Shown: positions 3,984 through 19,509 of the stretch, in pieces | How positions within the stretch are numbered: the first letter of the stretch is position 1 | Layout of the letters: every line of letters begins with the position of its first letter | NCBI GenBank assembly: GCA_026391215.1 | Contig: JAPLDX010000132.1 | Span: 1 to 25,093, forward strand | Length of the DNA: 25,093 nucleotides | From: Bacteroidia bacterium | Lineage (GTDB): Bacteria; Bacteroidota; Bacteroidia; Bacteroidales; VadinHA17 | Reading direction: 5' to 3' | Made by a program: the position numbers and the translations under genes | The notes under the pieces: generated by a model | What the model was told of the DNA's origin: nothing | The model's input: the letters and a program-made list of their open reading frames with translations, nothing else | Database searches by the model: none

Positions 3984-4086
3984 AACCCATACTGGTCCTT
4001 ATGAAATATGATATGGGTTTATAGCCCCCCTTCAGGGGGGATGGGGGGTAGAAAAGTCAATGGGGATGGGGGGTCGACAAGTCAAT
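3954..4086. repeat. REP-like G/C-tract inverted-repeat element with a 25-bp tandem duplication
   Basis: ACCCCCCTGCCCCCCTTAAGGGGGG (3955-3979) and CCCCCCTTCAGGGGGGATGGGGGGT (4025-4049) form an inverted pair, each with an internal C6-N4-G6 palindrome. Inner IR AAACCCATA (3983-3991) / TATGGGTTT (4012-4020). Direct repeat 4037-4061 vs 4062-4086 is 23/25 identical. Confidence 0.85.
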
Positions 4087-4188
4087 GGTCAAGAACTGAG
4101 AAATGCAAACATATATTATATTTACCAGTTCTTATTAAATTGAAGCATCTCTTTAACATATTATAAATCAATATATTAATTATTATAA

Positions 4189-7100
4189 ATGATTCTCTTC
4201 TTCAAAGGCTCCGCTAATACCATTTTAGCAGCCGGAGTTATAAAAAAGCTGTTAAAGAAAGATATTGAAAAGCTATGCTGGCTCTTCAGCAATGCAGCTA
4301 AGCTTGATTCTGAAACAGTTAAAGGTACCTTCATCGGACCTCGCAAGGAGATGATAACTCCCTGGAGCACCAACGCCGTTGAGATCACGCAGAATATGGG
4401 AATTACCGGTATAACCAGGATTGAAGAATTCCATCCTTCGGGGAAGAATCCGATATGGGACCCAATGCTTCAGTCCATATACAAAGACCTCGACCAGCAT
4501 ATTTTCAAAATTGACAGACTGCCTGAACCGGTAATATACATTGATGATATAAAGGAATACAACGACAAAGAAGGTCTTGCACTGAGCAATGAAGAAATAA
4601 AATATCTGCATAAGCTCAGCACCAGGATCGGCAGAAAATTGACTGACAGTGAAATATTCGGATTCTCGCAGGTCAATTCTGAACACTGCCGTCACAAGAT
4701 ATTTAACGGAATGTTTGTCATAGACGGTAAAGAAAAGGAAGCCTCACTTTTCCAGCTGATCAAGCTGACAACAAAGGTTAATCACAACAAAGTAGTTTCA
4801 GCATATAAGGATAACTGTGCTTTCATAAGCGGTCCTGTTGTTGAGCAATTTGCCCCGGTCACCCAGGACAAGGCTGATTTCTTCAAAATAACAGACTATG
4901 AATCAGTACTTTCACTTAAAGCTGAAACACATAATTTTCCTACCACAGTAGAGCCCTTCAATGGAGCTTCAACAGGTACCGGTGGTGAGATCAGGGACCG
5001 TATTGCGGGAGGCAAGGGGGCCTTTCCAATTGCAGGTACTGCGGTTTATATGACTTCCTATCCCCGCCCTGATGGTGCACGCAAGTGGGAAAAGAAGACT
5101 AAAGAGAGATCCTGGCTTTACCAGACACCTGAAGATATACTTATCAAAGCATCTAACGGTGCCAGTGATTTTGGCAATAAATTCGGACAGCCGCTGATCT
5201 GCGGATCGCTTTTCACATTCGAACATTTTGAAAATCTTAAAAAATACGGCTACGATAAAGTTATTATGCTGGCCGGAGGAATAGGTATCGGCAAGAAAAA
5301 TGACAGTGAAAAAGACATCCCCGAAAAAGGAGACATAATAGTTCTCCTCGGAGGAGACAACTACAGGATCGGTATGAGCGGAGGAGCCGTATCTTCAGTA
5401 GAAACAGGCAGATATGACAGCTCCATAGAACTGAATGCTGTCCAGAGAGCAAATCCCGAAATGCAGAAAAGGATATACAATGCCATCAGGGCTCTTGGTG
5501 AATCGGAAAATAGTCCTGTTATATCGATACATGATCACGGTGCGGGCGGACATCTTAATTGCCTATCAGAGCTGGTAGAGTCAACAGGAGGAAGAATTGA
5601 TATCTGCAAGCTTCCGGTGGGTGATCCTACGCTTTCGGCAAAAGAAATAATAGGCAACGAATCGCAGGAACGTATAGGACTGATAATGAATAAATTATCA
5701 ATTGATACGTTAAAAAAGATTGCTGAAAGGGAAAGAGCCCCTATGTACATCATCGGAGAAGTAACAGGTGATCACCAGTTCACAATGATAAATCCGATAA
5801 CAGGCGAAAAGCCAATTGATATTAAGCTTGAATCTCTCTTTGGCAATCCCCCGAAAACAGTCTTAACCGATAATACTGTCAGAACCGGCTACAGGAAAGT
5901 ATCATATGATATTATCCATATCAATGAATATGCAGAGATGGTTCTGCAGATAGAGGAAGTGGCGTGCAAAGACTGGCTCACAAATAAAGTTGACAGGTCG
6001 GTGACCGGCAGGATAGCCAAACAACAATGTGCTGGTCCTCTTCAGCTTCCGCTGAACAACTTGGGAGTCATTACTCTTGATTACAGGGGGAAACACGGGA
6101 TGGCCACATCACTTGGTCACGCTCCGGCTGCCGGGCTGGTTGATCCGGCTGCAGGTTCCGTCTTATCTATTGCTGAGGCCCTGACAAACATTATCTGGGC
6201 ACCGCTTACCGGCAAAATAAAGGGTGTTTCACTTTCAGCAAACTGGGTATGGCCATGCAGGAATCCAGGGGAAGATGCCAGGCTTTACATTGCGGTTAAA
6301 GCTGCCAGTGATTTCGCCATCAGACTGGGGATTAATATACCTACAGGCAAAGACAGTCTCTCAATGACGCAAAAATACAATGACCAGGTGGTACTCTCAC
6401 CCGGAACCCTGATAATTTCGGCATCTGCTGAAGTAAAGGATGTTCGCAAAATTGTAGAACCGGTCATAGTTAATGATCCCTATACCAGCCTTTTCTATAT
6501 TGACATGAGCAAGGATGATTTTAAGACAGGAGGAAGCAGTTTTGCCCAGGTACTGAACAGGCTGGGAAATGATGTCCCCACAGTGAAGGATCCTGTTTAT
6601 TTTGCTGAAGTATTTAATACAATACAGGAACTGATATCCGGGAACAAGATCCTTGCCGGTCATGACATATCGGCTGGAGGAATGCTAACAACACTTCTTG
6701 AAATGTGCTTCTCAAACACTTCGGGAGGAATAACGATCAACCTTTCAGCCCTGGATGAAAAAGATACAATAAAAATGCTTTTCAGTCAGAATCCCGGAAT
6801 ATTGATCCAGGTGAAGGATGAGAATGAAGTGGCCGAAATACTGCTGGAACATGGCATATCTTACTTTTCTATAGGACATCCTGTAGATGAAAGATCACTT
6901 TTTATCACCAGCAATAATTATAAAATAAAATTTGATATTGACGAGCTCAGGGATAAATGGTTTATCACCTCATTTCTTCTCGACCGGAAACAATGCGGAG
7001 AGAAACTTGCAGCCGAACGGTTCAGGAATTATAAGAACAATAATCTGAAAATCAATATTGGTGATTTCCCCGGAACTTTTAAATCTCTCGGTATCTCACC

Positions 7101-7887
7101 TGAAAGAAGGAAGAAAAGTGGAATCAGGGCAGCGATCATCAGGGAGAAGGGTGTGAACGGCGACAGGGAAATGGCATATGCTCTTTATCTTGCCGGATTT
7201 GATGTGAAGGATGTTCACATGACAGACCTGATCTCGGGCAGGGAAAATCTTGAGGAATTGAGCATGATAGTCTTTGTGGGCGGATTTTCAAACTCTGATG
7301 TTCTTGGTTCTGCAAAGGGCTGGGCCGGTGCATTCATGTACAATAGCAAGGCACAGTCATCCCTCAAAAAATTCTACAAAAGAACTGATACTCTATCCCT
7401 TGGCGTCTGTAACGGATGCCAGCTGATGGCCGAGCTGGGGCTGATTTATCCGGAGCATTTGAAGATGCCAAAGCTTCTGCGTAACAGGTCCGGCAAATTT
7501 GAATCTGCATTTCTCGGAGTCAGGATATTGCCTAATAAATCGGTTATGCTTGGCAATATGTCAGGAATGGAACTTGGTATCTGGGTTGCGCACGGAGAGG
7601 GACAGTTTAGTCTTCCCTATCCCGAAAAGAAGTATAATATCCCTTTAAAATATTCCGGTCACACATATCCGGCAAATCCTAACGGCTCCGATTATGACGT
7701 GGCAGGCTTATGTTCTGATGATGGCCGCCATCTGGTAGTTATGCCGCATCTTGAACGGGCATATCTCCCATGGCAATGCGGTTATTATCCTGACGGAAGG
7801 AAAAATGATGAAGTCACACCATGGATACAGGCATTTGTAAATGCCAGGGAATGGATAGAATCAGCGGCGGGTGACAGGCGTAAATGA
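4189..7887 (+). CDS. purL: Phosphoribosylformylglycinamidine synthase, large single-chain type
   Basis: NSEHCRHKIFN, KAETHNFPT, IHDHGAGG and ESQER motifs. C-terminal glutamine amidotransferase domain with GGFSNSDVLG, LGVCNGCQL and MPHLER. Confidence 0.98.
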   Translation: MILFFKGSANTILAAGVIKKLLKKDIEKLCWLFSNAAKLDSETVKGTFIGPRKEMITPWSTNAVEITQNMGITGITRIEEFHPSGKNPIWDPMLQSIYKDLDQHIFKIDRLPEPVIYIDDIKEYNDKEGLALSNEEIKYLHKLSTRIGRKLTDSEIFGFSQVNSEHCRHKIFNGMFVIDGKEKEASLFQLIKLTTKVNHNKVVSAYKDNCAFISGPVVEQFAPVTQDKADFFKITDYESVLSLKAETHNFPTTVEPFNGASTGTGGEIRDRIAGGKGAFPIAGTAVYMTSYPRPDGARKWEKKTKERSWLYQTPEDILIKASNGASDFGNKFGQPLICGSLFTFEHFENLKKYGYDKVIMLAGGIGIGKKNDSEKDIPEKGDIIVLLGGDNYRIGMSGGAVSSVETGRYDSSIELNAVQRANPEMQKRIYNAIRALGESENSPVISIHDHGAGGHLNCLSELVESTGGRIDICKLPVGDPTLSAKEIIGNESQERIGLIMNKLSIDTLKKIAERERAPMYIIGEVTGDHQFTMINPITGEKPIDIKLESLFGNPPKTVLTDNTVRTGYRKVSYDIIHINEYAEMVLQIEEVACKDWLTNKVDRSVTGRIAKQQCAGPLQLPLNNLGVITLDYRGKHGMATSLGHAPAAGLVDPAAGSVLSIAEALTNIIWAPLTGKIKGVSLSANWVWPCRNPGEDARLYIAVKAASDFAIRLGINIPTGKDSLSMTQKYNDQVVLSPGTLIISASAEVKDVRKIVEPVIVNDPYTSLFYIDMSKDDFKTGGSSFAQVLNRLGNDVPTVKDPVYFAEVFNTIQELISGNKILAGHDISAGGMLTTLLEMCFSNTSGGITINLSALDEKDTIKMLFSQNPGILIQVKDENEVAEILLEHGISYFSIGHPVDERSLFITSNNYKIKFDIDELRDKWFITSFLLDRKQCGEKLAAERFRNYKNNNLKINIGDFPGTFKSLGISPERRKKSGIRAAIIREKGVNGDREMAYALYLAGFDVKDVHMTDLISGRENLEELSMIVFVGGFSNSDVLGSAKGWAGAFMYNSKAQSSLKKFYKRTDTLSLGVCNGCQLMAELGLIYPEHLKMPKLLRNRSGKFESAFLGVRILPNKSVMLGNMSGMELGIWVAHGEGQFSLPYPEKKYNIPLKYSGHTYPANPNGSDYDVAGLCSDDGRHLVVMPHLERAYLPWQCGYYPDGRKNDEVTPWIQAFVNAREWIESAAGDRRK

Positions 7888-8412
7888 AACTGAGATAAGC
7901 TTGGCTATATCAGCAGCGGAAGATCCGGTTACCTTAAAATCCTTCGGGAGTATCATTTCACTTGTGACCTGGATATAGAATTGGCCGGTATCCTGCAGAT
8001 ACAGGGAACCGATAAATGAATCTGCCCTGAAATAAGGTGATGTCACATCGGATGAATTCATAAAAACCTTATCGCAATCAGGACGTGCCTGGATCATTTT
8101 ATCCTGAACGTTAACCATCACCGGATTTTTATATTTCAGATCATTTGTATCCAAAGTAGCACTTGTTATCCATACATTATAACGTCCTGATTTTGAAACA
8201 ACAACATTCCATTCTGCGGTATTATCTGCTCGATCGTCCATATCTAAATAGCAGTCTGCCTTATCCAGCTTCAAGGAAATTGTTCCGTCTTCACGTTGTC
8301 TTATTGTTTCAGCACCATCCTTAATTTCCGGTGTTGTAGTCTTACATGAAATAAGAAGGCTGATAGCTGCTATTGCCAATAACCCTGATTTAGCCCTTTC
8401 AATTCTTATCAT
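7861..8412 (-). CDS. Hypothetical lipoprotein, possibly a beta-sandwich (CBM-like) domain
   Basis: 183-aa ORF with signal peptide and lipobox LLISC. AEWNVVVSKSGRYNVWI resembles CBM6/35-like strands (weak). The 3' end overlaps the purL 3' end by 27 bp. Confidence 0.7.
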   Translation of the reverse strand: MIRIERAKSGLLAIAAISLLISCKTTTPEIKDGAETIRQREDGTISLKLDKADCYLDMDDRADNTAEWNVVVSKSGRYNVWITSATLDTNDLKYKNPVMVNVQDKMIQARPDCDKVFMNSSDVTSPYFRADSFIGSLYLQDTGQFYIQVTSEMILPKDFKVTGSSAADIAKLISVSFTPVTRR

Positions 8413-8598
8413 TCGCGCTTATATCGTTAAATTAATAATCCTCGTAAATAGAACACTGCAAAAATTATTCCATTGTTCTGATTTTGGAAGAATTTGCAAA
8501 TTAAATTTAAATATTCCGATTATAAAAATGCTGATATAGGATTGACGAATTTAAAAGTCTTTCTTACCTTCTCATTATTAATATAACCATCAAATAAC

Positions 8599-8631
8599 TT
8601 GTTATTATCCAGTTATTAATGTATATCTTTG
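8599..8631 (+). promoter_or_regulatory. Candidate sigma-A promoter for the 8707-13646 operon
   Basis: TATCTTTG (8624-8631) matches TAnnTTTG. TTG at 8599-8601 is a possible -33 element. Lies in a very AT-rich divergent intergenic region. Confidence 0.5.
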
Positions 8632-8706
8632 ATTATGTTACATGATAGATTATAGAAGTATACTGCTTCACTATTAATCTCATAATAAATCAAAATATAA
8701 GATCTC

Positions 8707-10422
8707 ATGAAAAAAATCAGATCTGCAATTCATTTCCTCTTTTTTCGAAACGGATTAAAGTCCGTAAGGTCAGGAAAAGTCAGATCCCTCATATTTTTAT
8801 CGAAAGTAATTATGGTCATCCTTGCCTTCAATATGATCTCAGGATGTTATTATTATAAAGCCATCTCTACTACTAATCCAGGTGAAGAGCTTTTCCGTCC
8901 GTATCTCGGTAATAATAAAGTATTTGTTATCCATGAAGGAACATCTGTCTATCTATTGAATGTTTCAAAAATTGAAAATGATTCATTAAAGGGCACTCTC
9001 TCTTCAGATACCTATTCATTTCCATATAAGCGTACAGGCTTCCCTGAAATGAATACCTCGCCAAGATACAGGAGAACAAAGGGAGATCTTAGAATATTGA
9101 ATGAAGTCCATCTATATATTGATACAAAGGAAATTACTCAAATTCCTGGTACTTCAATTTCTTTAAAAGATATTCACAGGTGTGACGTTTATTTCAATAA
9201 TTATAACAAGACAGCATTTGTCTCGATTTTTGGCACCATCGGAATCATTGCGGGCACATTCATTGCAGTAAATATTGTAATCCTGCTGTATTTCATATTT
9301 TCAGGTGCTTCCTGTCCATTTATTTATGTAAATACAGACGATGGTTTAAAATTTGCCGGTGAAATTTACAGCGGAGCTATTTATGCCCCAATGGAAAGAA
9401 ACGATTATCTCGCTCTGCCACAGCTGATTGCTGATGACGGGAGTTATAAACTCAGGATTTCAAACGAACTTCAGGAGGTGCAGCACACAAATCTTGCAGA
9501 GCTCATTGTTATAGACCATCCGGCAAAATCAGAGGTCCTGTTAGACAAGTATGGCAATTATCAAACCTTTTCCGATATTCTGGCTCCGCTGAAGGCAATA
9601 AATCTCAGGGGAATGGATGTTCTTGACCTGGTTAAGGAAAGAGACAGTATATGCTATGTCGGTACAGATCCGCAAAAGGAGATTCCCCTGACAGATGGAT
9701 TGATTTTAACATTTGATCCGCCTGATAATGCACGATCAGCCAAAGTTATTATCAGGGCAAGAAATTCCCTCTGGCTTGAATATGTTTATAAGGATCTACA
9801 TGAATTACTTGGAAATTATAATGATAACTGGACCCGAAAACAAAATGGATCTAATCCTGAAAAGCTTAAGGAATGGCCTTTAAGCCAGAAGATCCCTCTC
9901 TTATTGTTTGTTGAAAAGAATGAAAGCTGGAAATTCCAAGACTATTATAATATGATCGGTCCGATGGCATTGAAAGAGGATGTTATCTCAATTAATCTTG
10001 ACAGTATCGGAACAGGACCGTTAAAAATAAAACTGGAATCAGGAACATACTTCTGGGAAATTGATTATGTAGGCATTGATTATTCTATAAATATACCAGT
10101 CAGACAAACTACAATCACCTTAAACAAGGCAATAGCTGAAGATGAGGATAATGTTGCCGACCTTCTCATGCATGACGATTTAAAATATTATGTCCAGTCT
10201 GAAGAACATACTTTTGCTGACCTGACTTTCAGGGTTCCGGAAAATGCCGGCGACGACAGGACTGTCATTCTTCATTCGAAAGGCTACTATAACATTAACC
10301 AGAAGAATACTGGTTTACCTCAGATTAAAAAGCTTAATGCCAGCCGTAAACCTGGACAGTTCCTTGAATATTCGAGGGAATTAATGGAAACCAAGGTCAA
10401 TCAATTGTACGGCACTCAGTGA
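8707..10422 (+). CDS. Hypothetical membrane-anchored protein (571 aa) with SCPFIY motif
   Basis: Long ORF. N-terminal hydrophobic stretch ending in ISGC (possible lipobox). Internal TM helix (about aa 170-200) followed by GASCPFIYV and a large soluble domain. No catalytic family recognised. Confidence 0.8.
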   Translation: MKKIRSAIHFLFFRNGLKSVRSGKVRSLIFLSKVIMVILAFNMISGCYYYKAISTTNPGEELFRPYLGNNKVFVIHEGTSVYLLNVSKIENDSLKGTLSSDTYSFPYKRTGFPEMNTSPRYRRTKGDLRILNEVHLYIDTKEITQIPGTSISLKDIHRCDVYFNNYNKTAFVSIFGTIGIIAGTFIAVNIVILLYFIFSGASCPFIYVNTDDGLKFAGEIYSGAIYAPMERNDYLALPQLIADDGSYKLRISNELQEVQHTNLAELIVIDHPAKSEVLLDKYGNYQTFSDILAPLKAINLRGMDVLDLVKERDSICYVGTDPQKEIPLTDGLILTFDPPDNARSAKVIIRARNSLWLEYVYKDLHELLGNYNDNWTRKQNGSNPEKLKEWPLSQKIPLLLFVEKNESWKFQDYYNMIGPMALKEDVISINLDSIGTGPLKIKLESGTYFWEIDYVGIDYSINIPVRQTTITLNKAIAEDEDNVADLLMHDDLKYYVQSEEHTFADLTFRVPENAGDDRTVILHSKGYYNINQKNTGLPQIKKLNASRKPGQFLEYSRELMETKVNQLYGTQ

Positions 10423-10449
10423 TCCGAAAGCATTTAAAGATGATTTATT

Positions 10450-11637
10450 ATGAATCGGGGCACTAAAGCTGCCTGTGTTCAAAATAGCAGGATACATATT
10501 GTAAGCGGTTTGAAGCTTGCAATGGTAAGGATTGGTGCAGTCCTGACCATTCTCATACTATCTCTAAAAATCAATCCAAATCCATTTAAAGCAGTCCGAT
10601 TGCTTCGTTCCTTAATCAGGGAAAGAGTTACCATCCATGGCAACGAAGGTGGAATAAAGGCTGTTAAAGCAGGCAAAAAATATTTTTGGAGCACAAATGT
10701 GCCGGGATGGCCTTCTGAGGCTTTCAATCATTTTATATATAATGAATTCCAGAGGATTCACTCTCCTCTTGAAAGCCATCTTCAGACGATATTTTTAGGT
10801 ATCACCAATGTTTGTCCATTAAACTGCATTCACTGCTTTGAATCAGAAAATTTGTCTGACAAAGACAATTTATCACTGGAGGAATTAGTGAATATTATGG
10901 AGAAAATTAACAATCATGGAATCAGACACATACATCTAAGCGGCGGAGAGCCCCTGAGCAGGTTTGATGATATGATCGAACTGTTGAGATTTTCCGGGAA
11001 CACCAAAGAATTCTGGATTAATACTTCGGGTTTCGGACTTACCAGGGAAAAAGCTTTTGTAATGAAGCAAAATGGGATCACCGGGGCCATTATTAGTCTT
11101 GATGATTGGGATGAAAAAAAGCATAATGCTTTCCGGAAAAATGACAAATCTTACTTCTGGGTGAAAGAAGCTGTCAGAAACTGCAACGAAGCAGGTATTA
11201 TTGTCTGCCTGGCATTATGCTGTATAAGGGAATTTGCAACAGAAGAAAATTTAGACCGGTATCTCCAGCTGGCTAAAGAAATGGGTGCCGTATTCGTCAG
11301 GATAATGGAGCCAGTTAAAGTCGGGAGGTTTTCCGGCAAGGATGTTCAGCTTGATCAATTCCAGATCGGTATAATTGACAGGTTTATGCTTTCCCGCAAT
11401 AGTGATCCGGCTTATGCCGGATATCCTATAATACAATTTCCTGGCCACCACCAGAGAAGATCAGGTTGTCAGGGTGCAGGCAACAGGTATCTTTACATTG
11501 ACTCAAATGGTCAGTTTCATTCATGCCCATTTTGCAGGAAACCTCTTGGAAATGCTTTAACAGAATCATTAGACTTCGGGATAGCACAGGCCAGAGCAGC
11601 CGGATGCCATTTATTCCAGCAAAGAACTTTAGCCTGA
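10450..11637 (+). CDS. Radical SAM protein with C-terminal SPASM/Twitch-like Cys motif
   Basis: ITNVCPLNCIHC (CxxxCxxC), LSGGEP, INTSG, ISLD. C-terminal GCQGAGNRYLYIDSNGQFHSCPFC...AGC. N-terminal extension of about 110 aa with a hydrophobic segment. Confidence 0.92.
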   Translation: MNRGTKAACVQNSRIHIVSGLKLAMVRIGAVLTILILSLKINPNPFKAVRLLRSLIRERVTIHGNEGGIKAVKAGKKYFWSTNVPGWPSEAFNHFIYNEFQRIHSPLESHLQTIFLGITNVCPLNCIHCFESENLSDKDNLSLEELVNIMEKINNHGIRHIHLSGGEPLSRFDDMIELLRFSGNTKEFWINTSGFGLTREKAFVMKQNGITGAIISLDDWDEKKHNAFRKNDKSYFWVKEAVRNCNEAGIIVCLALCCIREFATEENLDRYLQLAKEMGAVFVRIMEPVKVGRFSGKDVQLDQFQIGIIDRFMLSRNSDPAYAGYPIIQFPGHHQRRSGCQGAGNRYLYIDSNGQFHSCPFCRKPLGNALTESLDFGIAQARAAGCHLFQQRTLA

Positions 11638-11643
11638 CCGGAA

Positions 11644-12234
11644 ATGAAAATAATAAATATACCTCTTAATATACCTAATGTACTTTCCTTATACAGATTG
11701 TTCTCGTTCCCATTCGTAATGATCTTTATATTCCTGGGGCATGAGACTCTGTTTGCATTCTTTATATGGTTCAATCTCACAACGGATATTCTTGACGGGT
11801 GGATTGCCCGCCGGTTCAATCAAATGACCGAAATCGGTGAAAAGATAGACGGAATAGCTGATTCAGGAACATACATTCTTGCGCTTACGGGGATTTTTGT
11901 ATTTAAATGGACTGATTTTCAACCTCATGCTATATCATTTTTCATTTTTATCGGACTTTTTATTATTTCCCGGTTGCTTTCTCTTCTGAAATTCAGGGTT
12001 TATTTCGGTTACCATTCCGTACTTATTAAAATAGCCGGATATATTCATGGCGCTTTTTTTATTGTACTGTTCTTTTTGAATTTCTACATTTGGTTTTACT
12101 ATATTGTCATGATCAGTGGTTATATTGTATTTACGGAATCCATTCTGATAACGTTGATTTTAAAGGAACCAAGGTCGCATGTTAAAGGGTTCTTCTGGTT
12201 GCTTAAATCCAGGAAAGAGGTAAATCAGTCATGA
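11644..12234 (+). CDS. CDP-alcohol phosphatidyltransferase family protein (PgsA-like)
   Basis: NIPNVLSLYR and the signature DILDGWIARRFNQMTEIGEKIDGIAD (DxxDGxxAR-x8-GxxxDxxxD). Multiple TM helices. Confidence 0.93.
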   Translation: MKIINIPLNIPNVLSLYRLFSFPFVMIFIFLGHETLFAFFIWFNLTTDILDGWIARRFNQMTEIGEKIDGIADSGTYILALTGIFVFKWTDFQPHAISFFIFIGLFIISRLLSLLKFRVYFGYHSVLIKIAGYIHGAFFIVLFFLNFYIWFYYIVMISGYIVFTESILITLILKEPRSHVKGFFWLLKSRKEVNQS

Positions 12235-13646
12235 GCTTACTTTTAATTATATCAACAATCCACTTTTTAATAGGCGGGGTCAGCTTATTTCTTATTAACA
12301 AGAAACTATCTGTTGAAGAGCGGAGAAAAAACTGGTTGAAGTACATATTCTACCTGCTTATTTTTGTGGTTGTCCTGGCATCTGTCCTGGTAAATAAGAA
12401 CATTTTCCTTGGAGTCTCAATAATTATTTTTTCCATTTGTCTTTTAGAGATCCTGAAACTTAGTAAACTGCCATGCACTTATATTTTGCGTGATCGATTT
12501 GTTTTCATATCCATAATAATATTTTCAATCCTTGCACTGTTATTTTCAATTTTCATTCTTGTACCCTCAGTAATCATTGCCTATACCTATACTGTTGTCA
12601 TTATTTTTGATGGTGCAAGCCAGATATCAGGTCAGATCTTCGGTAAGAGAAAAATATTCCCGGCCATTAGTCCAAACAAAACATTTGAAGGATTAGCAGG
12701 CGGAATTTTAAGCGCAGTGATCACAGCTGTCATTTTACATGGTTTTGTCAGCTTTTCTGTAACTAAAGCTTTGATCTTCGGGCTGCTAATATGTGGTGTA
12801 TCGTTCACAGGAGATTTCGTATCATCGATTTACAAAAGAGCCTTTAGTATGAAAGATTTTGGGAATATAATTCCGGGTCAAGGAGGGATGATGGACAGGT
12901 TCGACAGCTTCATAACAAGTGGTGCTGTTGTAGGTTTAATAAGCATTTTTACATTTTTTTCATTCAGGGATGCTGACAGAAACATTGCCGTCTATCTTGG
13001 ATACTCCCTGACCTTTATATTAATACTCTTATCCGGTGAAATGCTTCAGCATATATTCAAGTTTAAGCCGGAATTTTCAAGAGCTTTTTCACATATGATA
13101 GCGGGAATAGCCAGCTTATTCATGATAAAGTTGTTTACATCTCCGTGGTATATCGTTTCTATCTGTATCCATTCGGCTATATTCATGTACATTTCAAAAA
13201 GAATCAGCATGTTTCATTCTCACCACGGAGTGGAAAGGACTACAAATGGAAGCCCATTGTTTTTCATGGGAATCTTAGCTGCCTTCTTAATCTCAGAAAT
13301 GCAAAAAAATACATCATTGTTTTATTTGCCGGTTACGATCCTGTCAATCAGTGATCCTGCTGCTTCATTGGCTGGATTAAAAAGCAAGTCGGGATTGTGG
13401 TCAGAATTATTTTCAGGTTTCAAAAGTTCAAAAACCTACCTGGGATCTCTTGTTTTTTTTATTTCAGCTTTTATAATCCTGATTGCAGGGATGGCTCTCT
13501 TTTACGAATTTACCTCATTAAAGCTTATTCCTTTAGCAATAATATCAGGGATAATTACAATTACAGAGCTCATTAGTCCCGGTGGGTCTGATAATCTCAC
13601 CATTCCCTTAGCAGCCTCTTTGACAATTGCCTTGCTAGTAGTGTAA
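12231..13646 (+). CDS. Fusion of phosphatidate cytidylyltransferase (CdsA) and a SEC59/DGK1/VTE5-family CTP-dependent lipid-alcohol kinase
   Basis: N-half: ISPNKTFEGLAGG and KRAFSMKDFGNIIPGQGGMMDRFDS (CdsA). C-half: SRAFSHMIAG, SISDPAASLAG, KTYLGSLVFF and ELISPGGSDNLTIPL (phytol/dolichol/DAG kinase family). ATGA overlap with the upstream gene. Confidence 0.88.
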   Translation: MSLLLIISTIHFLIGGVSLFLINKKLSVEERRKNWLKYIFYLLIFVVVLASVLVNKNIFLGVSIIIFSICLLEILKLSKLPCTYILRDRFVFISIIIFSILALLFSIFILVPSVIIAYTYTVVIIFDGASQISGQIFGKRKIFPAISPNKTFEGLAGGILSAVITAVILHGFVSFSVTKALIFGLLICGVSFTGDFVSSIYKRAFSMKDFGNIIPGQGGMMDRFDSFITSGAVVGLISIFTFFSFRDADRNIAVYLGYSLTFILILLSGEMLQHIFKFKPEFSRAFSHMIAGIASLFMIKLFTSPWYIVSICIHSAIFMYISKRISMFHSHHGVERTTNGSPLFFMGILAAFLISEMQKNTSLFYLPVTILSISDPAASLAGLKSKSGLWSELFSGFKSSKTYLGSLVFFISAFIILIAGMALFYEFTSLKLIPLAIISGIITITELISPGGSDNLTIPLAASLTIALLVV

Positions 13647-13654
13647 GTAACTGT

Positions 13655-15556
13655 CTAGTAAACAATTACATTTTTTCTCAAGCAGGAAGCTGGTTTAGGT
13701 GTGTTTTTTTTTAACATTGGCACAGTTATAGCTTCTGCAACTATTTCAGCGATATCGGCAACCTTTGTCTCTGTTGCTCCTGCAAGAATTTTCTTGCATA
13801 ACGGGCATGATGTTGCCAGAATGTCCGGATTTTCCCTGGTCAGCTCAGCAGCTGTATCACGGGCTATTTTATTCTTTTCCTGATAGCTGATCTTAATATT
13901 GCCAAGGCTCCCTCCGCAACAGAGAGATTTCTCATTTTCAAAATTCGTATTCTGCAGGCGGACAACATGCTTAAGGACTTCTTTGGGTTCATCGTAAACT
14001 CCAGAACCTCTTCCCAGATCACAGGGTGTATGGTATACGACTTTTTTCCTCAGGAAATTGAGTTTCAGTGAACCTTCCTCAATAAGCATATTAATGAACT
14101 GTGTATGATGAAGAACCTCAACATCAAGATAATAGCTTTCTTTAAATACCTTATAGCATATCGGACAGGAGGTCACAAGTGTATGGGCACCTGATTTCCA
14201 TATAAGCTGCGAGTTAAAATTAATTAATTCTCTTGCTTCCCTGTCCTGACCTGAAAGCATAAGAGGACGGCCGCAGCAGACACCACCGCCGGCATCCATG
14301 AAACTGTAATTTACCCCGGAAGCATCAAATATCCTGACCATTGAATTCCCGATAGCCGGTGTAAGATGAGTCATGCAGCCGGCAAAATAAAGAACATCAG
14401 TTTTTGCCGGTTCTTCCACAGGCAGAAATGAATATGATGTTTTCCCGTTAGTTTTCACCGGCATAATATCAAGCCTGTCAGGCAGATATTTCTTCCATAT
14501 GCTGGTTTGAACAGGTTCGGTCTCTCCTGCCCTTCTTCTTATCATCCTGATCGGCGTCAGCTCAATACCTACCGGGCATACCTGATCACACCGCCCGCAC
14601 ATGAGACAGTTGAAAGCAATATCGCTGACATTTTCATTGTTACGTATGCCTTTCAGAAGATAAGCCGATTGAATATTAGTTATGCCTGCCGAGAAATTAA
14701 GCTGGCATGCATCTATGCACATCCCGCATGATGAACATGAATATGTCTGTATTTCCGTGAAAGCGCCTGGCTGATCACCTGTTGTTATTCCTGAGTTCCT
14801 CGCAAATATCAGGAACAGCTCAGTTGGGATATGCATATACCTTGTAAGAGGAAGAAGGATAAAAAATGTACCAAGTGAAAGAGAATAGAGCCACCAGAAG
14901 GGATATGCCATCTGCTGTGCCGGAAGAAAGGATGCCAGGAGTGAGCCAAGAAATCCTGTAAGGAAGCTACCGGTGCCATAAGCACCACTGGTGAAGCTTT
15001 CAGCCAGAAGTCGGCTCGGAAAGATCAGCCATAAAGAAGTAAGAGCAACCTTGTCAAGCACTCTCAACCTGGTTGTCTTTTTCATTCCGACCACTTTTGA
15101 AGAAAACCTCTTGATCACTGCAATCAGCAGTCCTGATAAAATAAAAGCAAGCAGCAGATCCATCCAGAACGAATAGGCGGCTTCAAAGCCCGCCCTTCCG
15201 TGATCAGGATTAAAGAATTTGAAGAAAATAGCTTTATATGGAGCGTTCAGGTGTTTCTCACCGAAGATATCAGCTTCAATAGTACCGAACAGAATCAGCA
15301 GGAACCATCCGAAAGCCAGGCTCATATGCATAAAGCCAAGTCTGAAGTTAGATTTAAGTATCTTCCTGTGAATCAGGCTCTCCATAAAGATCTCCTTCAG
15401 GCTTTGTCCGAATGCTCTTCCGAAGAAGCCGCGCTGAAGCCGCAGCTTGTCAGGCCTCGAAAGGTTGCTGAACCAGCGCACGCTTCTCACTACTGCATAG
15501 ATGAGAATGAAGTACAGTCCGATATTAAATGGTATGACAAACGGATCAAACTGCAT
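13655..15556 (-). CDS. Membrane-anchored heterodisulfide-reductase-like protein (HdrF/HdrED-type): NarI-like TM domain, 2x[4Fe-4S], two CCG domains
   Basis: N-terminal TM helices with His in GFMHMSL and RYMHIP. Ferredoxin motifs CSSCGMCIDAC and CLMCGRCDQVCP. CCG domains FAGC..VCCG..TSCPIC and HTPC..LCCGG..TSCPLC. Confidence 0.88.
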   Translation of the reverse strand: MQFDPFVIPFNIGLYFILIYAVVRSVRWFSNLSRPDKLRLQRGFFGRAFGQSLKEIFMESLIHRKILKSNFRLGFMHMSLAFGWFLLILFGTIEADIFGEKHLNAPYKAIFFKFFNPDHGRAGFEAAYSFWMDLLLAFILSGLLIAVIKRFSSKVVGMKKTTRLRVLDKVALTSLWLIFPSRLLAESFTSGAYGTGSFLTGFLGSLLASFLPAQQMAYPFWWLYSLSLGTFFILLPLTRYMHIPTELFLIFARNSGITTGDQPGAFTEIQTYSCSSCGMCIDACQLNFSAGITNIQSAYLLKGIRNNENVSDIAFNCLMCGRCDQVCPVGIELTPIRMIRRRAGETEPVQTSIWKKYLPDRLDIMPVKTNGKTSYSFLPVEEPAKTDVLYFAGCMTHLTPAIGNSMVRIFDASGVNYSFMDAGGGVCCGRPLMLSGQDREARELINFNSQLIWKSGAHTLVTSCPICYKVFKESYYLDVEVLHHTQFINMLIEEGSLKLNFLRKKVVYHTPCDLGRGSGVYDEPKEVLKHVVRLQNTNFENEKSLCCGGSLGNIKISYQEKNKIARDTAAELTRENPDILATSCPLCKKILAGATETKVADIAEIVAEAITVPMLKKNTPKPASCLRKNVIVY

Positions 15557-15890
15557 TTTTCACTTTTTTATTAAAAGCTTCTCTTGCAAGCGTAACAACA
15601 TTACGTGTGTTCACACCCCGTGGGCATACCAGTATACATTTTCCACAGAGCATGCATTTCCCAATATTATCGCGGACAAGTTCATTCTCTCCCCGTTTCA
15701 AAAATATCTGGAGCTCCCTGAGGCTGAATCGTGTAAAATTACCAGTTGTACATGTTGCTGAACAGCATCCGCATTCAATACATACCCTGAAGCTTGGTTC
15801 ATGTTCGGCAATATATTCAGCAATGCTCCTGTCGTTGGCGTCATAGTCAATAATTCTGGCCTTCGAAATTGTAAAACCGAAATTGCTCAT
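15546..15890 (-). CDS. Small 4Fe-4S dicluster protein (HdrC-like)
   Basis: CIECGCCSATC and CMLCGKCILVCPRGV. Overlaps the downstream gene start by 11 bp. Confidence 0.9.
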   Translation of the reverse strand: MSNFGFTISKARIIDYDANDRSIAEYIAEHEPSFRVCIECGCCSATCTTGNFTRFSLRELQIFLKRGENELVRDNIGKCMLCGKCILVCPRGVNTRNVVTLAREAFNKKVKNAV

Positions 15891-15894
15891 CTTA

Positions 15895-16920
15895 TTAACT
15901 TCTGTTTTTAAAGTAATTCAATACATCCGAAACCGTTGCCCGTGCATGTGATATCGTTTCTGTAATATTCATAGGTGCAGTGCAGGTACCGGCATAAAAC
16001 ACCCCCGGTATATTACTGATATTACTTCCGAAATGGTTATCAGCTGAAGCAAAGAATCTGTTTTCCCCGGTTTCCAATCCTGCTGATTTTGCCAGGATTC
16101 TTCCACCTTCCGACATCTCCATACCTGCCATTAATACAAGCATATCGAGTTCCATTTTCAATGGGCGGCCTGCAAGAGTATCTTCGGCCTTAATTATCAG
16201 CTTCTTTCTTATTGATTCACTTACTTCGGATACTTTTCCTCTGATGAAGTTTATCCCCCATTCTTCCTGAGCTTCGCGATAAATTTCCTCGTAATGAGCT
16301 CCACCCATTCTCATATCCATATAAAAACAAAAAACTCTTGTTTCAGGAAGAAGTTCTCTAATTTCAATTGCTTGTTTTACAGCTGTTATACAACACAGCT
16401 TGGAGCAATACAGGTTACCCACCTTCTCATCACGAGAACCTACGCAATGTACAATACCCACATTCTCAGGTACCCTGCCATCGACTAATACAATCTTATC
16501 TTTTCTGAACATTTCTTCCAGATCAGATGATGTGATTACATTATCATAAATGCCATAACCATACTCTTCCTTTCTGGAACTTTTAAACAGATCAAATCCT
16601 GTTGCGACAACAACAGCATCTGCAGTCATTTCAGTACCTTCCCTGGTTTCAAGAGAAAAAATGCCATTTATATTTACTAATTTTTCTATTGTTGTTCCTG
16701 ATATGACCTTTATACCATCTTTATTTATAAGCTTGTCGAGATAGTCTTTTACCTCAGAGCTTCTTCTTCTGTCAGGGAAAAGCTTATACCAGCCATTAAG
16801 GTGTCCCCCTGTGTTTTCATCTTTCTCAACAAGACTTACATTAAAACCGGCGTTTGAAAGCTGTCCTGCAGCTTCCATCCCGGCCACACCAGCCCCGATA
16901 ACAACAATGTGCTTATTCAT
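15895..16920 (-). CDS. hdrA: Short HdrA-like FAD/Fe-S protein (341 aa, no ferredoxin insert)
   Basis: VIGAGVAG FAD motif, VVATGF, EYGYGIYDNVIT, HCVGSRD...YCSKLCC (HdrA cluster ligands), FYMDMR and GVFYAGTC. No CxxCxxC ferredoxin motifs. Confidence 0.88.
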   Translation of the reverse strand: MNKHIVVIGAGVAGMEAAGQLSNAGFNVSLVEKDENTGGHLNGWYKLFPDRRRSSEVKDYLDKLINKDGIKVISGTTIEKLVNINGIFSLETREGTEMTADAVVVATGFDLFKSSRKEEYGYGIYDNVITSSDLEEMFRKDKIVLVDGRVPENVGIVHCVGSRDEKVGNLYCSKLCCITAVKQAIEIRELLPETRVFCFYMDMRMGGAHYEEIYREAQEEWGINFIRGKVSEVSESIRKKLIIKAEDTLAGRPLKMELDMLVLMAGMEMSEGGRILAKSAGLETGENRFFASADNHFGSNISNIPGVFYAGTCTAPMNITETISHARATVSDVLNYFKNRS

Positions 16921-16926
16921 TAAATA

Positions 16927-17988
16927 TCAGATATTTAACAGACTGTGAGAATTTATTTTTGTCACTGTTCCGTTAATTTCATATTTCTTCTCCGGATCAT
17001 ATTCATATCCGATTTTTTCAAGCAATGGTTCACAATCGATCTGGTGCATCTGCAATCCCAGATCCCAGGGATCGTAACCCAGAACAAGCCCGGCTACCTC
17101 TTCGTATGTGAATACAGGAATACCCTCACCATTACAACCATATGTTTTGCCTTCCATTTCATTAATCACATACTGCCACCTGTCTAAAAACATAGGACAT
17201 CCAGGGCAGTTAGTGATAATCATATCGGGTTTATAGGGCTGCATTGATTCAAACTTCTGCTTCGAGCAGGCAATTGAAAAGCCCCTGTTAGCCTGTACCA
17301 GGTATTGTCTGAAGCCAAAACCACAGCAATGTCTCCGTTCGGGATAGTCAATGACTTGTCCTCCCCATTCTTCTATCATTCCTGCAAGAACATAAGGATA
17401 TTCTGCGCCACCGACACCCTTTAAAGGAAACATTTTAGAATAATGGCATCCTATATGATCCACAACTTTAAGAGGTTCACCGGTATTTTTATTTACTAAC
17501 TTATATTTAGCTTTTGCACCTATTTCTTTTCTGAATTTATATATGACATCACTTGCATGAGCCAGATTTTCAGGAATTTCAAATTCCCTCCCTGTGGCCT
17601 TTTTAAGCTGCTTCCTGACTTTACCCTCAACCTCCGGAAAATGGTGCCATGTTTCAAGGATTTCGGTATAAAGACCAAATGAAGTAATGCAGGAAGGGAC
17701 ATAGTTTTTATAACCTGCCTCAGTCATTAATGCAAACTGCCTTGCAACAACGGTCATCGCTGTCTCAACCGGAACAACGTCTCCATGATATCCAATGCCG
17801 GAACAGGTCGTATGACATGGATGTTCGTAGACATCCTTACCAAGCTCTTCCCTCATTATACGCAGAAAAGCAACCTCAGATCCGGGGAAGAAATTTTGCC
17901 TTATACAGCTTCTTACATAGAAGTATCTGTCATCAGCTATCTCTTTCTGATATTCACTCCATATAGCTCTTTTTCCTTCAATTTTCAT
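16927..17988 (-). CDS. hdrB: Heterodisulfide reductase subunit B-like CCG-domain protein
   Basis: Non-canonical first domain (RSCIRQ, TTCSG, SCITS). Canonical second domain (HIGCHY, HCCGFG, NCPGC). Ends with typical LVLGYDP...LGLQMH. Confidence 0.88.
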   Translation of the reverse strand: MKIEGKRAIWSEYQKEIADDRYFYVRSCIRQNFFPGSEVAFLRIMREELGKDVYEHPCHTTCSGIGYHGDVVPVETAMTVVARQFALMTEAGYKNYVPSCITSFGLYTEILETWHHFPEVEGKVRKQLKKATGREFEIPENLAHASDVIYKFRKEIGAKAKYKLVNKNTGEPLKVVDHIGCHYSKMFPLKGVGGAEYPYVLAGMIEEWGGQVIDYPERRHCCGFGFRQYLVQANRGFSIACSKQKFESMQPYKPDMIITNCPGCPMFLDRWQYVINEMEGKTYGCNGEGIPVFTYEEVAGLVLGYDPWDLGLQMHQIDCEPLLEKIGYEYDPEKKYEINGTVTKINSHSLLNI

Positions 17989-17993
17989 TCTGA

Positions 17994-18704
17994 TTATTGC
18001 TTTGTGTGCGACCCGTTATTGGTCTTGTAAATATGCCTGAAATACTCATTATCATTGGTTTCATCAAGTTGAAGGTTCAATTCCTCAGCCTTTTTCATTG
18101 AAGAAGACTCAATCTTTTCATATCGTTTTAGAGCTCCTGTCACTTCAAAAATCTTTTTTAGTTCATCAAGTGATTCTTGTGGAATTTTTCTTAAGATCCC
18201 AGGGCCAGATCCTTTATAATTTCCACCAAGCCGGTTTACAAGTTCTTTACGGTTTTCATAAACCCATTCCCAGTTTGGTCCCTGTTCAGGGTGAAGAGGA
18301 GGTGTAAGCATATCAATATAAACACAGTAACCGGTGCTGAGAATAGATTCCCCAACAGTTCTCTTAATAGCCAGTTGTTGTCTCCCCTTCTCTGATTCAA
18401 CAAAAAAACCAAGATCCTGTGATAATCCGCGTAATGCCATTATTACTAATCCTGGTGCATTACCTCGCGGACATCGTGTTTTACATGACATACATTCTCC
18501 ACAATACCATATTACTTCAGACTTAAGCAGTTTTTCAATTTCATCATTATCACCCGATTGAACAATATCCACAATTTGGCGTGGATCATAATTATAAAAC
18601 TCGGCTGCCGGGCAAATAGCAGTGCAAACGCCACAGTTCATGCAGGCATTCAGTCCCTCTTCAAACCTGATGTCCTGCATCAGCATTTCATAGTAATTTA
18701 CCAT
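17994..18704 (-). CDS. hdrC: Heterodisulfide reductase subunit C-like Fe-S protein with long C-terminal extension
   Basis: CMNCGVCTAICP and IWYCGECMSCKTRCPRG. First gene of the - strand operon. Confidence 0.88.
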   Translation of the reverse strand: MVNYYEMLMQDIRFEEGLNACMNCGVCTAICPAAEFYNYDPRQIVDIVQSGDNDEIEKLLKSEVIWYCGECMSCKTRCPRGNAPGLVIMALRGLSQDLGFFVESEKGRQQLAIKRTVGESILSTGYCVYIDMLTPPLHPEQGPNWEWVYENRKELVNRLGGNYKGSGPGILRKIPQESLDELKKIFEVTGALKRYEKIESSSMKKAEELNLQLDETNDNEYFRHIYKTNNGSHTKQ

Positions 18705-18900: not shown

Positions 18901-19509
18901 TTAAGGGCAATTGCAGGGTTTGTATTTCCTCCTGCCGTTCAGCTTTTCGTTGATCTTGTAAGTCAGGAAGGCCGAACCGGCACCAATAAGCGCTCCTGCA
19001 AGCACATCCGAGGGATAATGAACACCAACCTCCATTCTGGAATATGCAACTGTCCCGGCCCATGCAAAAGAGGGAACGATTACATACCATTCAGGATATG
19101 CCAGGCTTAAAGATGTGGCCGTTTCAAATGCAGATGAGGTATGTCCCGATGGGAAGGACGGACTTATAACATCCATTTTTTTCATAATATCGGGATAGGT
19201 TTCATATGGGCGGTCACGGTTAACAGTATATTTCAGTGCCGCGCTGATTCCAAAACTGAATGCAGTGCCCACTGCTATCACACAGGCATTTCTCACCATT
19301 TCTTTATCATCTTTTATAAGTCCTGCCGTTACAATGCCAGCAGGCACACCAATGACAACATAAGCCTCTGACCGCGACATGAACCTGAAGAAATTGTCTG
19401 CCGGAAGAACTTCCGGAGAATTTATTGACCTTAACAACCGGATGTCAATATTCTGAGAATAGAGACCTATCGATGTAAATAATGATATTATCAGAAAAAT
19501 AGCCTTCAT
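18901..19509 (-). CDS. PAP2 family phosphatase
   Basis: All three PAP2 motifs present: KYTVNRDRP, PSGH and SRMEVGVHYPSD. N-terminal signal peptide and TM helices. Confidence 0.93.
   Translation of the reverse strand: MKAIFLIISLFTSIGLYSQNIDIRLLRSINSPEVLPADNFFRFMSRSEAYVVIGVPAGIVTAGLIKDDKEMVRNACVIAVGTAFSFGISAALKYTVNRDRPYETYPDIMKKMDVISPSFPSGHTSSAFETATSLSLAYPEWYVIVPSFAWAGTVAYSRMEVGVHYPSDVLAGALIGAGSAFLTYKINEKLNGRRKYKPCNCP

Follow-up and report, generated by a model that had tools for sequence, protein, structure and literature searches.

The bacterial cytidine diphosphate (CDP)-diacylglycerol pathway proceeds through CdsA and then through PgsA, PssA or the CMP-forming cardiolipin synthase, and the radical S-adenosylmethionine (SAM) enzymes compared here include Tes/GDGT-MAS and Mss as well as the maturases SkfB and QhpD. 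In this study, we analyse a locus in which both kinds of enzyme are encoded side by side. It lies in a stretch of 25,093 nucleotides (positions 1 to 25,093 of contig JAPLDX010000132.1, forward strand) from a Bacteroidia bacterium of the order Bacteroidales (assembly GCA_026391215.1), which is called the window hereafter, and consists of four genes (Table 1) coding for a lipoprotein without known family (gene 1, or ORF1, ORF standing for open reading frame), a radical SAM enzyme (gene 2), a CDP-alcohol phosphotransferase (gene 3) and a two-domain protein with a CdsA-like N-terminal half (gene 4). The first two genes are separated by 27 bp and genes 2 and 3 by 6 bp, and genes 3 and 4 overlap by 4 bp. 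In this locus, enzymes of known kinds are assembled around a protein family that is uncharacterised, and the constant, informative neighbour of the radical SAM gene is the unannotated gene, not the annotated lipid enzymes. Our working model, with a probability of about 0.45, is that the operon is a composite of two modules of different age, in which genes 3 and 4 (module B) make a lipid that genes 1 and 2 (module A) work on.

With regard to the CDP-diacylglycerol pathway, the likeness comprises the CTP_transf_1 domain, the full transferase motif and the TmCdsA fold. However, the window proteins miss every NCBIfam equivalog cut-off, none of the four operon proteins reaching the curated cut-off of an NCBIfam model; the CdsA signature, usually PGHGG, reads PGQGG in gene 4; and the window CdsA is fused to a second domain of about 235 residues, in an operon with a radical SAM enzyme and a lipoprotein. 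This second domain recalls the cytidine triphosphate (CTP)-dependent lipid kinases, namely, Dgk1 and the dolichol and phytol kinases, in being polytopic and in having a D-x-x-A-x-x-x-G-like motif with a conserved Asp ahead of K-T-x-x-G, a likeness that lies solely in weak PF01148 matches among its relatives and in weak profile alignments. The study of yeast Dgk1 describes a CTP-dependent diacylglycerol kinase with an essential conserved Asp and a cytidylyltransferase-like domain, the latter being common to CTP-dependent diacylglycerol, phytol and dolichol kinases (PMC2459266).

Among the radical SAM enzymes, archaeal Tes/GDGT-MAS and Mss, the bacterial synthase of membrane-spanning lipids, share with gene 2 a radical SAM core and a Cys-rich C-terminal region, Tes is among its matches, and a Tes/TrsS-like radical SAM gene stands beside the ORF1–radical SAM pair at one locus (L038). 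Nevertheless, the window enzyme scores 41.4 bits against the Tes equivalog NF045702 (cut-off 450), and its family has an obligate partner of 550 residues, whereas we know of no description of Tes with an obligate partner protein. The available excerpt of the Mss/Ger paper mentions no such cluster (PMC13159169). SkfB and QhpD/QhpC resemble the window system by the sequence similarity of SkfB (E 1.4e-18 against the family profile), by four invariant C-terminal Cys and by a partner gene with an invariant Cys, but the window enzyme has no recognisable RRE, and where those maturases act on a short peptide or a small subunit, its partner is a large lipoprotein of the membrane. QhpD, a twitch/SPASM maturase, acts on Cys of its partner QhpC. 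TIGR04133, which we take to be a 'radical SAM/SPASM protein' family with a radical SAM enzyme paired with a lipoprotein in Bacteroidetes, would present the same arrangement in the same phylum; however, gene 2 reaches 50.8 bits against this model (cut-off 425) and ORF1 matches no NCBIfam model, which indicates a different family. Judged from these scores and from the match to the MoaA model TIGR02666 (68.1 bits, cut-off 284.05, and no Mob_synth_C domain), the window enzyme is neither Tes, nor MoaA, nor a member of TIGR04133. A search of the full-text literature found no paper whose main text brings radical SAM together with the terms CDP-alcohol transferase or cytidylyltransferase, two papers that came up being unrelated, although supplementary gene lists could mention members.

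Table 1. Features of the four-gene locus and its upstream region (positions in the window)
Feature	Position	Strand	Basis
Gene 1 (ORF1), 571 aa, lipoprotein with one membrane helix, without known family	8707..10422	+	AlphaFold2 model; alignment of 34 relatives
Lipobox MISGC with Cys47	8833..8847	+	Cys47 invariant in 34/34 relatives; hydrophobic stretch before it
Sole transmembrane helix of ORF1, residues 166-198	9202..9300	+	AlphaFold2 helix; mean 19-residue hydropathy 2.45 (34 relatives)
Cys203-Pro204 in S-C-P-F-I-Y, directly after the helix	9313..9318	+	Invariant in the ORF1 alignment
Gene 2, radical SAM enzyme, 395 aa, with N-terminal extension of ~110 aa and C-terminal four-Cys twitch-like region	10450..11637	+	PF04055 Radical_SAM, 82 bits (gathering threshold 29.5)
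CX3CX2C cluster motif, C122/C126/C129 (CPLNCIHC)	10813..10836	+	Invariant in 25/25 relatives
C340, C359, C362 and C386, putative auxiliary Fe-S site	11467..11607	+	Invariant in 25/25 relatives
Gene 3, CDP-alcohol phosphotransferase, 196 aa	11644..12234	+	PF01066 CDP-OH_P_transf, 69.6 bits (threshold 22)
Catalytic signature D48xxD51G52xxA55R56x8G65xxxD69xxxD73	11785..11862	+	Eight positions invariant in 18/18 relatives
Gene 4, 471 aa	12231..13646	+	ORF list
Gene 4, CdsA-like cytidylyltransferase domain, residues 1-235	12231..12935	+	PF01148; TmCdsA match
Gene 4, residues 236-471, distant second CTP-transferase-like membrane domain, candidate CTP-dependent lipid kinase	12936..13646	+	Weak profile evidence
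AT-rich spacer (294 bp), likely promoter region of the operon	8413..8706	.	Sequence read
TAnnTTTG match in the spacer, 76 bp before the first ATG	8624..8631	+	Sole plus-strand match there
183-aa ORF, lipoprotein-like N-terminus, without significant family, divergent from the operon	7861..8412	-	Borders the spacer

Conservation of the ORF1–radical SAM pair

Species-representative genomes were scanned once with a single peptide pattern, which gave at least 65 radical SAM loci, and homologues of the window proteins were called by phmmer among all ORFs of these 65 loci. According to record titles, 59 of them belong to Bacteroidota, two to Cloacimonadota and two to Thermoanaerobaculia, the remaining two being entered as 'uncultured bacterium'. 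An ORF1 homologue is present in 64 of the 65 loci, and the exception (L060) is cut by the contig end. ORF1 precedes the radical SAM gene in 53 loci and follows it in 11, the gap between the two having a median of 5.5 bp, with 4-bp overlaps in five loci. Gene 1 had been described in a first-pass annotation of the window as an unknown membrane protein; its membrane nature and lack of family are borne out, but the minor role given to it is not, since it lies adjacent to the radical SAM gene, co-oriented and within 300 bp, in 63 of the 65 loci.

The lipid genes behave otherwise. A CDP-alcohol transferase homologue occurs in five loci (L001, L009, L061, L039 and L051) and the CdsA fusion in three (L001, L009 and L061), the same three that carry both lipid genes, and no additional copy turned up when the loci were searched with profiles of the fusion and of its C-terminal domain. 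In a FastTree phylogeny of 59 radical SAM proteins, from which short or dropped ORFs were excluded (L026, L040, L056, L058, L059, L060 and L063), the window and these three loci group together with support 1.0 in a single clade, which is nested within the family. The four-gene block recurs in all three with tight spacing, the junction between the radical SAM and transferase genes measuring 6 bp in both the window and L001 and 3 bp in L009, while the flanks differ in all four genomes; the arrangement is thus not due to chance. As read from tree and gene content, the lipid genes joined an older two-gene system in one clade and were then kept. The first-pass annotation had proposed a self-contained pathway to a radical-modified phospholipid, with the check that radical SAM orthologues keep lipid-gene neighbours. 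At family level this largely fails, with both lipid genes in three of 65 loci and the transferase alone in two more. Such a pathway is plausible within this clade, but it is not a property of the radical SAM family, and the contrast with the pairing of ORF1 implies that the enzyme does not serve this lipid pathway as a dedicated tailoring enzyme.

A crude proxy for a shared metagenomic contig was obtained from equal size of the longest contig in a radical SAM cluster and in a transferase cluster. It is positive for 22 of 53 metagenomic radical SAM clusters at 52% identity or more, and for 14 of 26 when contigs of at least 5 kb are considered; among the other 55 listed radical SAM hits, weaker or partial, it picks out two fragments only, 64% and 52% identical. 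Being based on the best 120 of 306 transferase clusters, the proxy is uninformative where it misses.

With regard to the radical SAM enzyme itself, a search of a protein collection returned 118 proteins at E ≤1e-3, of which 109 clusters (including that of the window) score at least 242 bits. Scores then fall to 48 bits, where MoaA-like proteins begin, and this gap marks a discrete family. The solved proteins closest to the family profile by sequence are MoaA, SkfB, PqqE, BlsE and GDGT-MAS, the last of these (Tes/GDGT-MAS) with E 4.9e-11. A full SPASM domain contains seven Cys, whereas a twitch domain binds one cluster; the four invariant C-terminal Cys of gene 2 may bind a cluster and would fit a single twitch-like one. 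The SPASM family PF13186 does not match the window enzyme and is listed for one of the 109 family clusters. The 117 N-terminal residues gave no match to an RRE/PqqD-type domain or another Pfam family, even at E ≤10.

ORF1 matches no family in Pfam, NCBIfam or PADLOC, and a Pfam scan of 34 relatives revealed no consistent family in any of them. Likewise, its profile finds no match among PDB sequences, tblastn finds none in plasmids, its Atlas look-alikes are unnamed Bacteroidota clusters, and the homologue of Rhodocytophaga aerolata, the single record looked up, is annotated 'hypothetical protein'. On these comparisons, ORF1 belongs to no described family. In the alignment of 34 relatives, Cys47 stands in a lipobox-like L-x-G-C, which is followed by a variable domain of about 115 residues, and the protein is probably lipidated at this Cys. 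Further invariant residues (G223, R231, D233, N253 and E257) lie within 55 residues beyond the Cys-Pro site. The AlphaFold2 model (mean predicted local distance difference test score, pLDDT, 85.1) consists of a small beta domain, the helix 166-198, a pair of beta-sandwich regions into which three helices are inserted, and helices at the C-terminus; Foldseek of the whole model against PDB gave two weak beta-sandwich matches at E ≤0.001, both with template modelling scores under 0.2. With a lipoprotein signal and then a single stop-transfer helix, ORF1 would have its large C-terminal domain on the cytoplasmic side, where a radical SAM enzyme must act. Maturation of the sulfatase type was considered and dropped, as the motif for formylglycine formation is C/S-x-P-x-R and that of ORF1 is S-C-P-F-I-Y.

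The lipid genes of the operon

The ORF list confirms the four co-oriented genes and the spacing given in the first-pass annotation, and its calls of a radical SAM enzyme and of a CDP-alcohol phosphotransferase stand on their Pfam scores and, for the latter, on the full motif (Table 1). Gene 3 stays below the NCBIfam equivalog cut-offs for ClsA (52.2 bits, cut-off 240), PgsA (40.9 bits, cut-off 109.1) and PssA (35.1 bits, cut-off 107), its best sub-threshold matches being ClsA-type cardiolipin synthase and PgsA. Its relatives are labelled 'cardiolipin synthase (CMP-forming)' in one source, and it has no match among PDB sequences. This family comprises 306 clusters, as against nine for the CdsA–kinase-like fusion by word search; being far wider than the fusion, it indicates that lipid genes also occur apart from this operon.

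Gene 4 matches PF01148 (CTP_transf_1) with 121.4 bits (threshold 24) over residues 9-235 only. TmCdsA (4q2g) is matched at a sequence E of 5.4e-11 and by Foldseek with a probability of 1.00 and a template modelling score (TM) of 0.56 on the target; the fold search with the whole model, whose output does not state which half was aligned, retrieved both CdsA and CarS. The earlier CdsA call therefore holds as CdsA-like for residues 1-235, with 77 bits against the CdsA equivalog, that is, the housekeeping orthologue (cut-off 385).

The C-terminal half has 1749 relatives at E ≤1e-3 in an exhaustive search, most of them stand-alone proteins of about 220 residues. PF01148 is weakly matched by 20 of 40 aligned relatives (E ≤0.1, best 2.2e-6), and among 23 relatives scanned, P0145 (28.1 bits) is the sole stand-alone protein above the 24-bit cut-off. 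Both hhalign and hmmsearch (domain E of 1e-4 in a search of one sequence) place S-D-P-x-A-x-x-x-G and K-T-x-x-G of the C-terminal half against F-D-G-A-S-x-x-x-G and K-T-F-E-G of the CdsA half, and G-G-S-D-N parallels G-G-M-M-D-R. BLASTP between the halves gave nothing, nor did the C-terminal-domain profile against PDB sequences. The label of kinase is thus reasonable but unproven, and of the 'CdsA-kinase fusion' proposed earlier, the CdsA-like half is retained, whereas the kinase half is, on these weak PF01148 and profile ties, a distant second CTP-transferase-like domain.

Taken together, the transferase motif, the CdsA fold and the distant CTP-transferase-like domain make chemically coherent a route in which a lipid alcohol is turned into a lipid phosphate, then a CDP-lipid and then a phospholipid. 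In the complete route previously put forward, the transferase and CdsA steps are supported by motif and fold, and the kinase step by weak relatedness. Fusions are rare, about 13 fused forms being found among the best 150 representatives of the C-terminal-half relatives. Four proteins of about 450-470 residues (P0191, P0196, P0207 and P0126) show another architecture, unlike the CdsA fusion, with an N-terminal kinase-like domain and, after it, about 230 residues without Pfam family; one of them is a 'hypothetical protein' from a Geobacter metagenome-assembled genome.

Neighbouring genes and flanks

The called genes of the loci were clustered and 42 further neighbour proteins were scanned with Pfam, which gave a heterogeneous picture. 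Two families recur. Family c2 (about 265 aa) lies directly upstream of the ORF1–radical SAM pair in 22 loci by profile (e.g. L004 4376-5173), and family c5 (about 304 aa) directly downstream in eight (e.g. L031 9779-10693), so that one or the other is found in 30 of the 65 loci; their profiles cross-match at E 1.6e-5 and 1.4e-4, which identifies them as distant homologues. By profile, both are absent from the window and from the three loci with both lipid genes. Members have signal-peptide-like N-termini and a C-terminal Phe, genes at the same position carry DUF3575 (L026) or OMP_b-brl (L048), and OMP_b-brl is found on 18% of members in an Atlas look-alike cluster. The family has no significant match in Pfam or among PDB sequences, and hhalign detects no similarity between ORF1 and c2/c5. 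These proteins are probably outer-membrane barrels, and their presence near the pair points to a role in the cell envelope.

Lipid-type neighbours are also encountered. In addition to the CDP-alcohol transferase gene beside the pair in L039 and L051, they include a PlsC-like acyltransferase (L030), an MMPL transporter (L065), a short-chain dehydrogenase (L029) and, directly upstream of ORF1 in L041 (3845-5032) and L045 (3836-5023), a Spt/BioF-like pyridoxal phosphate-dependent acyltransferase, whose match to the CFB serine palmitoyltransferase model reaches 390 bits (cut-off 640). In L038, from Thermoanaerobaculia, the pair is directly followed by a gene (2679-4184) for a 501-residue radical SAM protein with a zinc-ribbon N-terminus, reaching 312 bits for TrsS (cut-off 490) and 262 bits for Tes (cut-off 450). 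In other respects, L041 (2-3572) and L045 (2-3554) carry three further SPASM-class radical SAM genes on the opposite strand; in three Bacteroidales/Rikenellaceae loci, the pair is followed by genes for an O-methyltransferase and an amino-acid permease (L008 8437-9102 and the next gene; L013 3517-5592; L060 566-2605); and a tyrosine integrase gene (2292-3509) lies just past the divergent CDP-alcohol transferase gene of L039, a region that may be mobile in that genome.

In the window, TAnnTTTG, which we take to be the Bacteroidetes -7 promoter consensus, is found 17 times against 25 expected and is thus not enriched. Promoter and terminator scans of the operon were uninformative, and an Rfam scan of positions 7800-14000 found no family and no riboswitch. 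A precursor peptide in the upstream spacer is unsupported, as the spacer contains just three ORFs of 26-30 residues without recognisable feature; a defence system is likewise unsupported, PADLOC having returned merely a generic viperin-like radical SAM similarity (35 bits). The 3' end of the divergent 183-residue ORF overlaps the end of purL (4189-7887) by 27 nt.

Downstream, a convergent gene ends at 13655, 8 bp past gene 4. It belongs to a heterodisulfide-reductase-like set on the minus strand (13655-18704). The set encodes a protein of 633 residues, in which an N-terminal membrane region is combined with a 4Fe-4S dicluster and two CCG domains, as well as a 114-residue ferredoxin and proteins resembling HdrA (341 aa), HdrB (353 aa) and HdrC (236 aa); none of them reaches an NCBIfam equivalog cut-off. 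This gene set suggests an anaerobic host. A gene for a PAP2-family lipid phosphatase (18901-19509, minus strand), about 5 kb from the operon, is not kept beside the operon in the examined loci.

Candidate functions of the operon

In our working model, module A would be a conserved two-gene system, present mostly in Bacteroidota. ORF1 would consist of a small exported N-terminal domain, one membrane helix and a cytoplasmic double beta-sandwich domain of about 370 residues, and its most conserved site, formed by the Cys-Pro together with Arg, Asp, Asn and Glu, would lie at the inner membrane face. Gene 2, presumably a radical SAM enzyme of the twitch type, would form an obligate pair with it on the cytoplasmic side of the inner membrane, presumably in physical contact, and the probable barrel gene beside the pair in roughly half of the genomes would indicate a function of the system in the cell envelope. 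Module B would have been added in one Bacteroidales clade. Its C-terminal gene 4 domain would use CTP to phosphorylate a lipid alcohol, the CdsA-like half would then turn the lipid phosphate into a CDP-lipid, and the Cls/Pgs-like transferase would move the phospholipid moiety to an acceptor hydroxyl. With the lipid supplied locally in this manner, the radical SAM enzyme would abstract a hydrogen from its chain or head group while ORF1 holds the lipid. The operon may thereby make or use an unusual membrane lipid.

Several observations weigh against this model. Lipid-type neighbours form a minority, about 11 of 66 loci with the window counted, and such genes are common, which makes them weak support for a lipid substrate. 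After MoaA, the nearest solved relatives of the radical SAM enzyme (SkfB and PqqE) act on peptides, and the invariant Cys of ORF1 suits a protein substrate equally well. As for topology, the counts of Lys and Arg flanking the ORF1 helix (1.4 before and 1.0 after) leave the positive-inside orientation unsettled. The N-terminal helix of the radical SAM enzyme is only moderately hydrophobic (mean 1.35). The best PDB fold match of ORF1 (E 6.3e-4, TM <0.2) is uninformative. In module B, the C-terminal half of gene 4 has no Pfam match of its own, and hhalign ties it weakly to the CdsA half (probability 23%, E 8.7e-4).

The main alternative, somewhat less probable than the working model, is that ORF1 is itself the substrate, its Cys203 being modified or cross-linked at the membrane face, for example through a thioether bond with a conserved Asp, Glu or Tyr close by, as known from QhpD/QhpC or sactipeptides, in the maturation of an envelope-spanning protein, the lipid genes serving a related but separate membrane task. 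The near-universal one-to-one adjacency with the radical SAM gene, with apparent translational coupling, speaks for this reading, as do the invariant Cys-Pro followed within 55 residues by R231, D233, N253 and E257, the four invariant C-terminal Cys of the enzyme, reminiscent of twitch/SPASM maturases, and the place of SkfB and PqqE among its best solved relatives; moreover, most loci keep the pair with no lipid gene nearby. However, no RRE/PqqD-type domain was detected in the N-terminal region of the enzyme, and a membrane protein of 570 residues is an unusual target for a radical SAM enzyme. The lipid genes, further, stay joined to the pair across radical SAM identities of 53 to 69% and in varied contexts, which suggests that pair and lipid genes have a task in common. 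On the present data, modification of Cys203 and a lipid substrate cannot be told apart, and the latter is retained as the best-supported working model.

The self-contained four-enzyme pathway of the first-pass annotation, in which the radical SAM enzyme would be dedicated to tailoring a new phospholipid and gene 1 would be a bystander, agrees with the tight operon and with three lipid activities in chemical order, and lipids are indeed substrates of radical SAM enzymes in this broad class, with Tes/GDGT-MAS among the matches. Yet we regard it as improbable, given the rarity of the two lipid genes beside the radical SAM gene compared with the near-constancy of gene 1, a score less than a tenth of the Tes cut-off, and a transferase family much wider than the fusion. 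That two unrelated operons should stand side by side by chance, without functional link, would agree with the strongly different phyletic spread of modules A and B, but it is highly improbable considering the short junctions, the lack of an intrinsic-terminator-like site between the radical SAM and transferase genes, and the block being kept in four genomic contexts and, by the contig-size proxy, on many metagenomic contigs. A more speculative proposal, which we hold to be quite unlikely, is that the pair performs an unprecedented radical-mediated covalent step at the inner membrane face, either joining a lipid to the cytoplasmic Cys203, so that the lipoprotein, already anchored by lipid on the other side, would be pinned from both faces, or linking lipids through their tails or head groups to give a phospholipid that is dimeric or spans the membrane; the kinase/CdsA/Cls-like module of the clade would then supply the activated lipid, and the barrel found elsewhere would mark a new envelope-spanning system.

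Returning to the working model of a lipid made by module B and worked on by module A, the fusion of CdsA with a CTP-transferase-like domain would couple lipid phosphorylation with CDP activation in one polypeptide. The radical SAM–lipoprotein system is present in at least 65 species-level genomes, and four carriers with isolate-type titles, Maribellus sp. CM-23, Maribellus sp. YY47, Draconibacterium mangrovi and Rhodocytophaga aerolata, could be cultured. If the lipid reading is true, the operon would offer a compact, transferable four-gene cassette for learning what this system does.

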